A stretch of 64,000 nt of DNA. Source: an uncultured Bacilli bacterium. GTDB lineage: Bacteria; Bacillota_I; Bacilli_A; RF39; UBA660. The translations under genes were made by a program, and so were the position numbers. The notes below the pieces were generated by a model, which was given only the letters and a program-made list of their open reading frames with translations, was not told where the DNA came from and made no database searches. This document shows positions 20,719 to 45,362 of the stretch, one piece after another (position 1 is the first letter of the stretch; every line of letters starts with the position of its first letter). The stretch spans positions 6,900 through 70,899 of the forward strand of contig CANRBQ010000001.1 of NCBI GenBank assembly GCA_947628905.1, written 5' to 3'.

Positions 20719-21453
20719 TTGATGAAAATTGAGAAATTTAGTAATGAAATAATTGATGAATTACAATATTATGTTTATAAACTAATTGATCCAAGAAATG
20801 GCAAAGTATTTTATATAGGAAAAGGTAAAGGAAATAGAATATTTGATCATGCTAAAGGGGCTTTATTAGATTTAGAAATGGAAAAATGGCAGGATGAGCT
20901 AACGGAAAAAATGAAAACTATTCGAGAAATTAAAGAAGAAGGATTAGATGTTATATATATTATTCATAGACACCATTTAGATGAAGCGACGGCTTTAGAA
21001 GTAGAGGCGGCTTTAATAGATGAATACCCAGGTTTAACGAATGTTATGCCTCCGATTAATTCAGAATATGGAGTTACAAGTGTAGAACAGATTGTGCATA
21101 GATATGGCTTAGAGAAAATAACAAAATTTGATGAAAATGATAAGGTATTAATTATAAAAATAAAGCCAGAGAGTGTTGATGATTTTGGACGTGGCTCTAT
21201 ATATGATACAGTACGTATGTGGTGGAAATTAAGTGAAGAACGTATTAAAGAAGTTAAACAAGTGGCCGCGGTTATTAATGGGGTTGTTAAAAAGGTTTAT
21301 AAAGTTGAAAAATGGATGTATAATGATGAACTTAAAAGATATGGGTTTGAAGGTGAAGAAATAAAAGATTCTATTTATTTAAATAAAATTATTCCAGATG
21401 AATATAAGAGAAGAGGAGAAGCTTCTCCAACATTATATACATTTAAAAGATAG
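20719..21453 (+). CDS. GIY-YIG nuclease-domain protein with C-terminal extension
   Basis: YYVYKLIDPRNGKVFYIGKGKGNRIFDH (GIY..YIG..R..H) followed by LEVEAALIDEYPGLTN (the conserved Glu/Asn region). Confidence 0.55.
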   Translation: MMKIEKFSNEIIDELQYYVYKLIDPRNGKVFYIGKGKGNRIFDHAKGALLDLEMEKWQDELTEKMKTIREIKEEGLDVIYIIHRHHLDEATALEVEAALIDEYPGLTNVMPPINSEYGVTSVEQIVHRYGLEKITKFDENDKVLIIKIKPESVDDFGRGSIYDTVRMWWKLSEERIKEVKQVAAVINGVVKKVYKVEKWMYNDELKRYGFEGEEIKDSIYLNKIIPDEYKRRGEASPTLYTFKR

Positions 21454-21524
21454 TTCTTTAATTTAATTGTAAAATCTTGCAATTTATATTGAATAATAAA
21501 TAATAAATATGGTATAATAATATT

Positions 21525-21700
21525 ACCTAGAGGATATAGTTTATTTTACATAAAACCGACTATGAGATAATTTAGGGAGAATAATTATATATGGAGTTGA
21601 ATGCTGGTCTTGATTTGCCAGAATCCAGAAGTATATATGTTTCTTACCACCTGCGAGCGCGCGGGATTTTATCGACAAATAGACTTTCCTCTGGGTTTTT
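21525..21700 (+). ncRNA. candidate structured small RNA of about 175 nt, class unknown (6S-like architecture?)
   Basis: Promoter TTGAAT at 21489-21494, 18-nt spacer, extended -10 TGGTATAAT at 21510-21518. The 5' end ACCTAGAGGA (21525-21534) is perfectly complementary, with one G-U, to TCCTCTGGGT (21687-21696), which is followed by T5. An internal GC-rich segment CCACCTGCGAGCGCGCGGG is highly atypical for this genome. No ORF. The downstream gene has its own extended -10 (TGTTATAAT, 21705-21713). Confidence 0.35.
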
Positions 21701-21726
21701 AATTTGTTATAATATAATTGGTGGTA

Positions 21727-22407
21727 TGGATGTTTGATAGATTACTTAGAATTATTACAGAAGAAGATTTAGATAAAATTAAAAAGACTAAAATACTTTT
21801 AGTAGGTGTTGGAGGAGTAGGGGGTTTTTGTTTAGAAGCTTTAGTTAGATCAGGATTTCAAAATATTACCATTATTGATGGTGATGTAGTTGATATAACT
21901 AATTTAAATAGACAGATTATAAGTAATAATAATAATATAAATAAAGAAAAAGTAATGGAAGCAAAAGAAAGAGCTTTAAATATTAATCCAAATATAAATA
22001 TAGAAGCCATAAGAGTATTTTTAGATAATAATAATTTTAATAGTTATGTAAATAAAAGTTTTGATTATATTATTGATGCTTGTGATGATTTAAATATAAA
22101 ATTGGCTTTAATTAAATATGCTAAGACTAATAAAATAAAGATAATTACAGCTTTAGGAGCAGGGAAAAAATTAGATGTTACAAAGTTAGAGTTCACTACT
22201 TTAGATAAGACATATAATGATCCTTTAGCTAAAAAATTGCGATATCAATTAAGAAAAGAAGAAATGGATTTAAATATACCTGTTGTATTTAGTAAAGAAG
22301 AAGCAATAAATAATGATAAAATAATAGGAAGTGCTATATTTGTTCCAGGTGTAGCGGGATTAATGCTCGCTGATTATGTATTTTTAGATTTAATTAATAA
22401 AAAGTGA
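21727..22407 (+). CDS. ThiF/MoeB-family adenylyltransferase, TcdA-like (tRNA threonylcarbamoyladenosine dehydratase)
   Basis: Rossmann motif ILLVGVGGVGGFCLEALVRSGF and NRQ motif. Size and sequence fit the TcdA/CsdL subfamily. Confidence 0.6.
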   Translation, partial: WMFDRLLRIITEEDLDKIKKTKILLVGVGGVGGFCLEALVRSGFQNITIIDGDVVDITNLNRQIISNNNNINKEKVMEAKERALNINPNINIEAIRVFLDNNNFNSYVNKSFDYIIDACDDLNIKLALIKYAKTNKIKIITALGAGKKLDVTKLEFTTLDKTYNDPLAKKLRYQLRKEEMDLNIPVVFSKEEAINNDKIIGSAIFVPGVAGLMLADYVFLDLINKK

Positions 22408-22473
22408 GTGTTAGGTAAACATTAAAAGAAGGTTATTTGGCATTAAAAATTTTAGAAATCTTCCTAACACTCA
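22405..22473 (+). repeat. 11-bp inverted repeat with about 47-nt spacer (copy A of a two-copy element)
   Basis: TGAGTGTTAGG ... CCTAACACTCA. It begins at the tcdA-like stop codon. Confidence 0.5.
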
Positions 22474-22509
22474 AGATACTATTTTAATTATTAAAAGAAG
22501 ATTTGTCCA

Positions 22510-22537
22510 GAAAAAGCGTTCGACAAAATTTGACATA
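22510..22537 (+). promoter_or_regulatory. conserved 28-nt motif copy A (GAAAAAGCGTTCGACAAAATTTGACATA)
   Basis: Identical at 27 of 28 positions to 34256-34283. It contains direct hexamer repeats TTCGAC-N4-TTTGAC. Confidence 0.5.
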
Positions 22538-22682: not shown

Positions 22683-23186
22683 ATGGCAAGGAGGATTCTA
22701 GATATTCATATAGAAGAAATTAGAAATCTTATTAAAGATTCTAAATTGAAGAAAGAAATTAATTATGAATATGATTATGATTTATTAGGAATAGATAGGG
22801 AACTAGATAAGCATGAGAAATATAAAGTGATTCAAAAATTTTTGAATGACTATTTGTTAGAGATTAAAGAATTGTTTTTTAAGAAAAATGTTAAAACATT
22901 AAAAGTAAATAGTGAAGAGTATTTAAAACATTTTACTTTTAATTCAAATATTGAGATTTCTGATGAAGATAAAAATAATATTAAAAATGCAAGTGATTTA
23001 CTGGCTTATCAATTGTATTCAAAAACAGTTGGAGTAAATGGAAGGAAAATAACTTTTCCAATTAATATTGTAAATATAGAAGAATTAATGATTCCAACAT
23101 ATATTAAGAGTCAGTATGTAATGGATGTAATTATAAGAGTTATAGTTAATTTAGCTATTATTTATAATAATTTAAAAAATATGTAA
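22683..23186 (+). CDS. hypothetical protein
   Basis: 167-aa ORF with RBS GGAAAGTGGAG. No motif recognised. Confidence 0.45.
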   Translation: MARRILDIHIEEIRNLIKDSKLKKEINYEYDYDLLGIDRELDKHEKYKVIQKFLNDYLLEIKELFFKKNVKTLKVNSEEYLKHFTFNSNIEISDEDKNNIKNASDLLAYQLYSKTVGVNGRKITFPINIVNIEELMIPTYIKSQYVMDVIIRVIVNLAIIYNNLKNM

Positions 23187-33392: not shown

Positions 33393-34058
33393 TTATTTTA
33401 AAATGAACACTAATTTTAGAAGAATTTTATGAGCAAAGAAATATATTATAATATCATTTATAATAATAATTATCATACATAAAGAAATAATTTTAATTCT
33501 TTTATTAAAGTTATAGGTTTTTTCACTTTTATATTTTAGATTATTTAGAATATCTTTAGTTAATTTTTTAATTTGTTTAAATATTATTAATATTAATATT
33601 AAATATAGGCCTTTAGTTAAAATATTATAAATAAGAGAAAATATAAGACCTTTGAATTTAAAAATATGATAAAAAATAAATAAATTATAATTTAAACATA
33701 TACTTTCAAATAAAATATATATAGGAAATATAAATATACTTAAACCAATTAGAGATAAACTTAATAATATTCCTAAAAAAATAAAATGGAGAGGTAATAA
33801 ATTTAGGGAATTACTTAAATATGTATTGATATTAGTTATCTCATTTATAATTAATTCGTTATTTAAATGATGATATAAAATGAAACTGATAAAAAGACTA
33901 ATAAGATATATAATAAGACTTAATTGGAAGATTTTAGGAAGTTTAGTGCGACTTTTCATGATATCACCATTAAATTGTATTGAAAAAAAATAGAAAATAT
34001 GATAAATTATAGATAGAAGAAAAGAAATGGTGATGTATATGAATAAAAAAGCTCGCAA
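33393..34058 (-). CDS. hypothetical polytopic membrane protein (possibly spurious AT-rich ORF)
   Basis: Extremely F/I/L-rich with a TTG start in the track. A possible real start is at MKSRTKLPKIF. Confidence 0.3.
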   Translation of the reverse strand: MRAFLFIYITISFLLSIIYHIFYFFSIQFNGDIMKSRTKLPKIFQLSLIIYLISLFISFILYHHLNNELIINEITNINTYLSNSLNLLPLHFIFLGILLSLSLIGLSIFIFPIYILFESICLNYNLFIFYHIFKFKGLIFSLIYNILTKGLYLILILIIFKQIKKLTKDILNNLKYKSEKTYNFNKRIKIISLCMIIIIINDIIIYFFAHKILLKLVFILK

Positions 34059-34144
34059 GATATTTGCTTGGTGTATGTTATTAGCAATGGTAGCAAGTGT
34101 TGTAGCAACAATTGTTTCTTATATGCTTTAATAATATAAAAAAA

Positions 34145-34219
34145 GTAGTTCTGAATAATTTGGATAAGTAACTGTATTTAATATTTGTTTTCAGGAGTGT
34201 AGGTGTAATTCAGAACTAC
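34145..34219. repeat. 12-bp inverted repeat with about 51-nt spacer flanked by A/T runs (copy B; bidirectional terminator-like)
   Basis: AAAAGTAGTTCTGAAT ... ATTCAGAACTACGCTTTTT. It lies between the murF stop (minus strand) and a 30-codon ORF on the plus strand. Confidence 0.5.
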
Positions 34220-34255
34220 GCTTTTTATTTTACTCAAAAATTTAGAAAATAGCAA

Positions 34256-34283
34256 GAAAAAGCGTTCGACAAAATTCGACATA
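34256..34283 (+). promoter_or_regulatory. conserved 28-nt motif copy B (GAAAAAGCGTTCGACAAAATTCGACATA)
   Basis: 27 of 28 positions identical to 22510-22537. Directly abuts the murF stop codon. Confidence 0.5.
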
Positions 34284-44673: not shown

Positions 44674-45362
44674 TTAAACATCCTCCTAAATATTTCATCA
44701 ATAGAGCTATTTTCTTTTTCTCTTAACTTATCAGCATCAGAAGAAAGAATTATTTTTCCTTTATCAATAAAGATAACTTCATCAAGTATTCTTTCAATAT
44801 CGCTAATAAGATGAGTAGATATTATGATACTAGCATCTTCATTAAAATTATTTAAAATGGTATCTAGTATGTAATCTCTAGTGGCAGGATCAACACCACC
44901 TAAAGGTTCATCTAGTATATAAAGTTCGACATTTCTTGACATAACAAGGATAAGTTGTAATTTTTCTTGCATGCCTTTACTCATTTTAGATATTTTAGTG
45001 TCTATCTCTAAATCTAAATCTTTTATTAATTTCTTGGCTTTTTCTATATCAAAATTATCGTAAAAGTCTGTAAAATAATCAAGTGTTTGTTTGATTGTCA
45101 TACTTTTATCTAAATATGTTCTTTCAGGTAAATAAGATATAATTTTTTTACTTTCTATACCTACTTCTTTACCATTAACTAAAATTTCGCCACTTGTGGG
45201 AATAAGTAAGTCATTGATAAGTTTAATTAAAGTGGTTTTACCCATACCATTTTTTCCTAATAATCCTATAATTTTTCCTCTAGGTATTTTTAAGTTAATA
45301 TCTTTTAAGACTGGTTTTTTATCATAGCCTTTATAAATATGTTTACATTCTAATAATTCCAT
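44667..45362 (-). CDS. ABC transporter ATP-binding protein (YtrB-like)
   Basis: Walker A GKNGMGKTT, signature MSKGMQEK and Walker B ILDEP. Confidence 0.8.
   Translation of the reverse strand: MELLECKHIYKGYDKKPVLKDINLKIPRGKIIGLLGKNGMGKTTLIKLINDLLIPTSGEILVNGKEVGIESKKIISYLPERTYLDKSMTIKQTLDYFTDFYDNFDIEKAKKLIKDLDLEIDTKISKMSKGMQEKLQLILVMSRNVELYILDEPLGGVDPATRDYILDTILNNFNEDASIIISTHLISDIERILDEVIFIDKGKIILSSDADKLREKENSSIDEIFRRMFKC

Follow-up and report, generated by a model that had tools for sequence, protein, structure and literature searches.

We analysed a 64,000-nucleotide (nt) stretch of DNA from an uncultured Bacilli bacterium (contig CANRBQ010000001.1), here called the window, in which a 28-nt sequence (GAAAAAGCGTTCGACAAAATTYGACATA on the plus strand) occurs twice, at 22510-22537 (copy A) and 34256-34283 (copy B), each time beside a long-loop inverted repeat. 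The 28-mer is best read, on the minus strand, as a putative double binding site for Spo0A, the master regulator of sporulation. Each copy probably comprises an operator and a core promoter for a short minus-strand unit, in which Spo0A boxes would drive a small structured RNA. Systems of this kind are known (Spo0A operators, sigma-A promoters, convergent antisense RNAs), and sequence comparison suggests that the two RNAs, a link to the protein family DUF4044 and a related family of small-peptide modules are most likely new members.

The two copies had been reported in an earlier, sequence-only reading of this DNA, and both positions and the 27/28 identity hold; the sole difference is a T/C exchange. 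The claim that such identity exceeds chance is borne out as well, with 0 comparable matches in 100 dinucleotide-preserving shuffles when 3 mismatches were permitted. Alignment of the copy A and copy B regions confines the similarity to ~30 nt. The flanks are unrelated and yet share the geometry of the repeat, in keeping with the earlier statement that the arms differ in sequence and the layout does not. Arms of 11-12 base pairs (bp) and interiors of 47-51 nt agree with that reading. The gap between repeat and 28-mer, given there as 34-38 nt, is exactly 36 nt in both copies, because a -35 hexamer (6 nt), a spacer (17 nt), a -10 hexamer (6 nt) and a further 7 nt precede the repeat. The features of the two elements are as follows.

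22405-22415 and 22463-22473: copy A inverted repeat, 11-bp arms around a 47-nt interior
34145-34156 and 34208-34219: copy B inverted repeat, 12-bp arms around a 51-nt interior
22535-22529 and 22525-22519, minus strand: copy A putative tandem 0A boxes TGTCAAA and TGTCGAA, separated by TTT (sequence reading, core match)
34281-34275 and 34271-34265, minus strand: copy B putative tandem 0A boxes TGTCGAA and TGTCGAA, separated by TTT, invariant in six orthologous loci
22510-22518, minus strand: copy A T-rich linker CGCTTTTTC, joining box 2 to the -35
34256-34264, minus strand: copy B linker CGCTTTTTC
22481-22509, minus strand: copy A sigma-A-type promoter, -35 TGGACA (22509-22504), 17-nt spacer, -10 TAAAAT (22486-22481), 10/12 in a promoter scan
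34227-34255, minus strand: copy B sigma-A-type promoter, -35 TTGCTA (34255-34250), 17-nt spacer, -10 TAAAAT (34232-34227), 9/12 in the promoter scan

On the minus strand the 28-mer reads TA-TGTC(A/G)AA-TTT-TGTCGAA-CGCTTTTTC. The core of the Spo0A box (0A box) is TGTCGAA, in which the protein contacts G2, C4 and G5, and it is recognised by Spo0A of B. subtilis and C. difficile alike (PMC3485338). Three of the four heptads match this core at 7/7 positions and the fourth (copy A TGTCAAA, G5 to A) at 6/7. In both copies the boxes form a direct repeat with a 3-nt spacer and a centre-to-centre distance of 10 bp. This head-to-tail geometry fits the crystal structure of Spo0A on DNA. Active Spo0A~P binds as a dimer, according to literature cited in PMC12090719, and boxes 10 bp apart would suit that form. 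Only copies A and B carry the tandem pattern TGTCRAA-N3-TGTCRAA in the 64-kilobase (kb) window. A third, weaker tandem-box-like sequence (TGTCAAGAAATGTCGAA, 44925-44941, minus strand) has 2 mismatches, lies within the coding region of an ABC-transporter ATPase and is probably due to chance.

Both promoters begin at the base adjoining the 28-mer, and box 2 ends 9 nt before the -35; that of copy A is the top match of its region in a scan for the consensus promoter. Since the inverted repeat starts 7 nt past the -10 in each copy, we infer that transcription starts at its foot. The sequence-only reading had treated the inverted repeat as a separate upstream element, a view we reverse: on the minus strand it lies downstream of the 28-mer and is the predicted transcribed product. 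The position of the boxes makes activation the most likely sign of regulation by Spo0A.

A 19-nt core of the motif (TGTCRAATTTTGTCGAACG) was then scanned over one genome per species (GTDB), giving at least 115 loci (L001-L115), ~110 of which are from Firmicutes; all counts in this paragraph and the next are among the matches listed. With loci oriented on the motif, a promoter was scored as a -35 with at least 4/6 matches followed 16-18 nt later by a -10. The -35 falls exactly 7 nt past the 19-mer in 41 of the 115 loci, against 0-2 loci at every other offset from 0 to 15, and its distance to the -10 is 17 nt in 36 of these 41. Over 48 promoter-phased loci the consensus is TGTCGAATTTTGTCGAACG-atTTTtc-TTgaca-17-TAtAaT, with a linker consensus of CG-atTTTtc. 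The same scan outlines a promoter grammar that is highly stereotyped in Firmicutes: TGTCGAATTTTGTCGAACG is followed by 7 nt of T-rich linker, and the -35 is then set 17 nt from the -10. This phase is kept in 41-48 of the 115 loci. In unrelated genomes, 26 of 114 loci match the 28-mer of the window at 26/28 positions or more, which argues that the 27/28 identity of copies A and B reflects functional constraint and not recent duplication.

The surroundings of the motif in other genomes are those expected of Spo0A sites. Upstream of spo0A, at a distance of 140-212 nt, the 19-mer occurs in three loci (L065, L077, L028), and in a fourth (L081) it lies 63 nt after the gene; these genes were recognised with a Spo0A query, to which the matches are 64-66% identical over ~115 residues. 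It also precedes orphan HisKA sensor kinases in L014, L050, L104 and L105. Two further settings were observed. In bins labelled 'Tenericutes/Bacilli' the 19-mer precedes cold-shock protein genes (L003, L008, L041, L069, L089), with a spoIIID homologue nearby in three of these loci (L003, L069, L089). An exact tandem 0A-box 19-mer is also present on several low-GC viral contigs from IMG/VR (L129, L130, L132, L133, L134), recalling the Spo0A sites carried by phages of the phi29 family (PMC2731898).

The 28-mer of copy B ends 4 nt from the murF stop (34288), abutting it as the sequence-only reading had noted, and the following features lie beyond it on the minus-strand side.

34138-34221, minus strand: predicted RNA B, ~84 nt, with 5' arm 34219-34208, 3' arm 34156-34145 and a U7 run at 34144-34138
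34203-34193, minus strand: invariant 11-nt loop core of RNA B, CCUACACUCCU, anti-Shine-Dalgarno-like
34036-34131, plus strand: convergent small open reading frame (ORF) MNKKARKIFAWCMLLAMVASVVATIVSYML, Pfam DUF4044, 24.7 bits against a cut-off of 21.8
33393-33959, minus strand: gene for a lineage-specific membrane protein of 188 amino acids (aa), encoded downstream on the RNA B strand, syntenic in six orthologs

Five orthologous RNA B loci were found. Four of them (L031, L096, L110, L010) are syntenic with the window at 32-40 kb, at 72-86% nucleotide identity, and a protein search with the neighbouring membrane protein led independently to the fifth (L124). Gene order is the same in all six loci, counting the window: murF, boxes, promoter, hairpin RNA, convergent 30-aa ORF, membrane protein, mnmA. 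Across them the 0A boxes, the -10 and the loop core CCTACACTCCT are 100% invariant and the hairpin arms 88-94% identical. The promoter spacer is 45% identical, its length constant at 17, and the rest of the RNA B loop 39% identical. In the six orthologs every pair of the 12-bp helix is kept (100% paired). L124 carries the one compensatory change, T-A to C-G, and three U.G cells pair on the minus strand only, being C.A mismatches on the opposite strand. The minus-strand RNA folds with z = -4.1 relative to shuffled sequence; beyond the 12-bp end-to-end pairing its interior is largely unstructured, and no start codon for an ORF is present. A metagenome scan with the RNA B core gave 0 matches.

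The DUF4044 ORF is convergent with RNA B in all six orthologs, and RNA B is the exact complement of the 3' untranslated region (UTR) and terminator of DUF4044, so that the simplest mechanism would be cis-antisense control of DUF4044, timed by Spo0A. We found no functional literature on the DUF4044 family, a protein widespread in Firmicutes with no evidence of toxicity. The ORF has its own strongly conserved promoter, TTGAAA-17-TGnTAAATT, in the region 33960-34035, which overlaps the ribosome-binding region of the divergent membrane-protein gene. The 188-aa membrane protein has no family match, and only 7 homologues were found in a protein search.

Copy A sits between a gene similar to ThiF/TcdA (21718-22407) and an ORF of 167 aa (22683-23186). 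These neighbours had been named correctly; the statement that the element precedes the 167-aa gene fails, as the functional strand is the minus strand and the element points away from that gene, towards the following features.

22396-22475, minus strand: predicted RNA A, ~80 nt, with 5' arm 22473-22463, a 47-nt interior, 3' arm 22415-22405 and a U5 run at 22403-22399
21718-22407, plus strand: ThiF/TcdA-like gene (Pfam ThiF, E = 8.6e-40), convergent with RNA A

The stop codon of the ThiF/TcdA-like gene (TGA, 22405-22407) falls inside the left arm of the copy A hairpin, and RNA A is antisense to this stop codon and to the 3' end of the gene. The minus-strand RNA folds at -16.3 kcal/mol (z = -4.4 relative to shuffled sequence) around a largely unstructured interior that contains the anti-Shine-Dalgarno-like stretch CCUUCUUUU; the only ORF in it has 10 codons and lacks a proper ribosome-binding site.

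In related bins, however, the promoter, 5' arm (CTTGAGTGTTAGG), anti-Shine-Dalgarno-like stretch (CCTTCTTTT) and 3' arm of RNA A have homologous counterparts in longer transcripts. These A-type relatives span 208-262 nt from a predicted start at the 0A-box promoter and would encode peptides of 29-47 aa (for example MKLKAILDSIISLFRANNKTSTIIIVNNNLAVHVYQNKSLK) with the pattern ..KTSTIIIVxNNLxVxVY... In predicted folds (-64 to -88 kcal/mol) the 5' end pairs with the 3' end and the Shine-Dalgarno (SD) sequence is sequestered, and a conserved convergent promoter follows (TTGTAT-17-TGtTAAAAT-7-GTAGAGC). A-type loci include L016:3745-4060, L024:2322-2630, L060:1120-1380 (minus strand), L093:443-770 and L115:6288-6620, as well as L136, L139-L141, L144-L146, L148, L150, L152, L153 and L156, and one genome bin (Lapin-001__bin38) holds five copies; in the window, a search for further A-type or tandem-box copies found none. 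As an independent test, metagenomes were scanned with the RNA 5' motif only. Thirteen of the 22 matches are true A-type modules, and 0A-like boxes accompany 13/13 of these against 0/9 of the chance matches; TGTCGAA lies exactly 51 nt upstream of TTGAGC in 11 of the 13.

By sequence and layout, the A-type family is a set of unannotated, predicted small-peptide messenger RNAs (mRNAs) arranged like type I toxin-antitoxin modules, and RNA A is an ORF-less relative of it. The peptides have no Pfam family (four tested) and, for the one searched, no homologue in the protein database. Over eight distinct arm sets, aligned by hand, two pairs of the 5'-3' helix are compensatory; the one found in the window copy alone (C-G to U-A) suggests that the ORF-less copy A is maintained and not decaying. 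Element A is common only to contigs of the same species (L116, L123), where it is identical; when an orthologous site was sought in other species, homologues of the 167-aa protein proved to stand in a different, phage-like context. The closest 167-aa homologue outside the species (72% identity) has a different neighbourhood rich in helix-turn-helix proteins (L117-L122), so that the 167-aa gene may be mobile or accessory. One of the same-species contigs (L123:365-385, compared with window 22192-22211) shows a 20-nt deletion in the ThiF/TcdA-like gene that would shift its frame. Directly upstream of that gene lies a 6S RNA gene (21521-21701, plus strand; Rfam RF00013, 52.3 bits against a gathering threshold of 46.4). 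The 6S RNA gene is in turn closely preceded by a gene (20719-21453, plus strand) whose product is a LEM-3-like protein with a GIY-YIG domain.

Neither element matches a family in Rfam 15, whether the cut-off is the gathering threshold or is relaxed to E = 10, and no Rfam match was obtained in 11 homologous loci. A terminator scan called neither hairpin, their loops measuring 47 and 51 nt against the usual 3-8 nt; with minus-strand U-runs after both (U5 and U7), termination is plausible.

Taken together, these observations suggest the following sequence of events. A Spo0A~P dimer would occupy the two direct 0A boxes, in 10-bp phasing and with the pair centred near -53, and the rise of Spo0A~P at stationary phase or sporulation entry would activate the promoter. 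Transcription would begin ~7 nt past the -10, where the inverted repeat starts, and this repeat would act as a helix joining the 5' and 3' ends of an RNA of ~80-85 nt. The RNA would present a large, mostly open loop with an anti-Shine-Dalgarno-like stretch (CCUACACUCCU in RNA B, CCUUCUUUU in RNA A) and end in a U-run. RNA B may then act as a Spo0A-timed cis-antisense RNA on DUF4044, by duplex formation and degradation or by transcriptional interference, and in loci where its terminator is weak it could continue into the downstream 188-aa membrane-protein gene.

Several observations weigh against this scheme. Five of the six B loci were chosen by the 19-mer itself, and box invariance in them is circular. 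The covariation comes from few sequences, the observed value being reached by 91 of 500 shuffles for the RNA B helix and by 9 of 500 for the A helix. Both promoters are already near consensus in their -35 and -10, and dependence on an activator is not obvious. Read on the plus strand, the RNA B hairpin with a conserved T-run behind it would be the DUF4044 terminator and could explain part of the conservation at copy B. A distant relative (L127) keeps a DUF4044-like ORF, the membrane gene and mnmA with neither boxes nor hairpin, which makes RNA B a lineage-specific addition. As to trans targets, RNAduplex runs of both loops against all translation-initiation regions in the window gave no outlier and no convincing partner, and the window contains no further complement of the RNA B core above what chance would give. 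The 64-kb window holds no spo0A and no sporulation-specific gene, a SpoVB-like match lying below the cut-off. Homologues of spoIIID and spoVAC were seen only in other low-GC 'Bacilli/Tenericutes' bins carrying the motif; they lend indirect support to the presence of Spo0A, and the organism may sporulate.

The tail of RNA B bears on an alternative that keeps the Spo0A promoter and changes its product. Behind the hairpin, the window and L031 alone have a good U-run; the tails of the other four orthologs are weak, which leaves a discrete small RNA uncertain and makes read-through possible. The copy B transcript might then be the structured 5' leader of a longer minus-strand mRNA, antisense through DUF4044 and continuing into the 188-aa gene (33393-33959) and mnmA, in an excludon-like arrangement that turns one off and the other on. 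Consistent with this, the membrane gene lies on the same strand in 6/6 orthologs, 290-312 nt past the boxes, and has no clear promoter of its own, the conserved intergenic blocks being the DUF4044 promoter on the other strand. We nevertheless regard a leader as unlikely: a strong U7/U4 tail comes right after the 12-bp stem in the window and L031, copy A, of the same design, runs towards the 3' end of a gene convergent with it and has no target for read-through, and retention of the membrane gene in L127 indicates that its expression can do without promoter B.

The identity of the regulator is the other point at which the Spo0A interpretation might give way, since the direct repeats could be bound by another response regulator or by a repressor like CtsR, which controls class III heat-shock genes, the sequence-only reading having proposed a resemblance to the CtsR operator. 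Like the CtsR operator, the element is a heptad direct repeat with a 3-nt spacer and contains GTCAAA, and the 64 kb available of this genome hold no spo0A signature. CtsR has the consensus (A/G)GTCAAA-NAN-(A/G)GTCAAA, and its operators extend over the -35/-10 or onto the start site of clp genes (PMC12634643). The element misses this consensus at 4 (copy A) or 5 (copy B) positions, compared with 0-1 mismatches to two 0A boxes: T replaces A/G at position 1 of both heptads, three of the four heptads have G for A at position 5, and the spacer is TTT, with no central A, where NAN is expected. It lies upstream of the -35, downstream there is no clp gene, and its neighbours are the ThiF-like gene, the 167-aa ORF, murF and DUF4044. 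An identical 19-mer, moreover, accompanies spo0A and sporulation-type orphan kinases in other Firmicutes. The CtsR operator is therefore rejected, with mismatches, position and neighbours all at odds with it and the wrong strand having been read, and a regulator other than Spo0A appears very improbable. The absence of ctsR from the window and the fetched loci carries no information. What survives of the earlier proposal is a regulatory heptad direct repeat that is no chance duplication and is tied to a predicted transcript boundary.

It is scarcely credible that the repeats are mere bidirectional terminators and the 28-mer an unrelated duplicated scrap (a mobile-element remnant or attL/attR pair): copy B does lie between the convergent murF and DUF4044 with T-runs flanking the hairpin on both strands, and the copies are direct repeats 11.7 kb apart, but the terminator scan passed over both long-looped hairpins, a plain terminator needs no invariant 11-nt core, constant promoter spacing or compensatory stem changes, and a scrap would not recur at 26/28 or better in 26 of 114 loci of unrelated genomes among the matches listed. 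The attL/attR or island-boundary reading was rejected, as similarity extends over only ~30 nt and the 11.7 kb that separate the copies are no island but carry housekeeping genes (gpsA, rarA, an xerD-like gene, a ZIP transporter, an ECF sigma factor and mnmA). The cre/CcpA and tRNA-fragment readings of the element gave no fit on inspection by eye.

With Spo0A-driven small RNAs as the preferred interpretation, a wider picture may be sketched, though it is tentative and we doubt it more than we believe it. In an uncultured low-GC lineage of spore-forming gut Bacilli, Spo0A might directly license, as sporulation begins, an unannotated class of small transcripts closed from 5' to 3' end. One branch would encode peptides of 37-47 aa in a layout like that of type I toxin-antitoxin modules; two others, copies A and B, would lack the ORF, through loss or from the outset, and act as antisense regulators, one of them silencing DUF4044. 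If true, the commitment to sporulation would involve toxin-like modules, and there would be a first clue to the function of DUF4044. More immediately, the analysis replaces the CtsR label with a testable Spo0A label, and the likely Spo0A regulon of this uncultured lineage grows by two small RNAs that Rfam does not contain. A widespread uncharacterised peptide, DUF4044, receives a first regulatory context, and an unannotated multi-copy family of candidate 0A-box-driven small-peptide modules is brought to light. The grammar of tandem boxes, 9 nt and a -35 could also predict Spo0A targets in metagenome-assembled Firmicutes.

Among known systems, Firmicute type I toxin-antitoxin pairs such as txpA/RatA, bsrG/SR4 and C. 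difficile CD2517.1/RCd8 overlap at their 3' ends (PMC6563280, PMC6562991). As in these modules, a small membrane-peptide gene and a predicted short RNA converge here on a terminator hairpin common to both, and the A-type mRNAs are predicted to have paired 5' and 3' ends, a sequestered SD and an antisense promoter at the 3' end. Unlike them, RNA A of the window has no ORF, and the partner of RNA B, DUF4044, is widespread with no evidence of toxicity. A literature search found no report of a Spo0A-box promoter driving type I-like modules.

Small non-coding RNAs tied to the sporulation cascade of B. subtilis, namely SurA, SurC and CsfG, were reportedly described by Silvaggi et al. in 2006. They are said to depend on sporulation sigma factors, or only indirectly on Spo0A, and to have no tandem 0A-box sigma-A promoter. 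The predicted RNAs of the window differ from them in showing no sequence or structural similarity and no Rfam match.

Close parallels are the Spo0A-controlled sigma-A promoters of B. subtilis (spoIIG, spoIIE, spoIIA and the autoregulated spo0A) and of C. difficile (spo0A, sigH), which have the TGTCGAA core in common with the element. In those promoters, direct-repeat boxes ~10 bp apart lie upstream of the -35 or overlap it, and here they likewise lie upstream. Classic Bacillus targets of Spo0A have degenerate boxes and, at spoIIG, an abnormal spacer. In the window, by contrast, the boxes are perfect or nearly so, stand a fixed 9 nt before a near-consensus -35 and are followed by a normal 17-nt spacer, and the predicted product is a small non-coding RNA in place of a sporulation protein.

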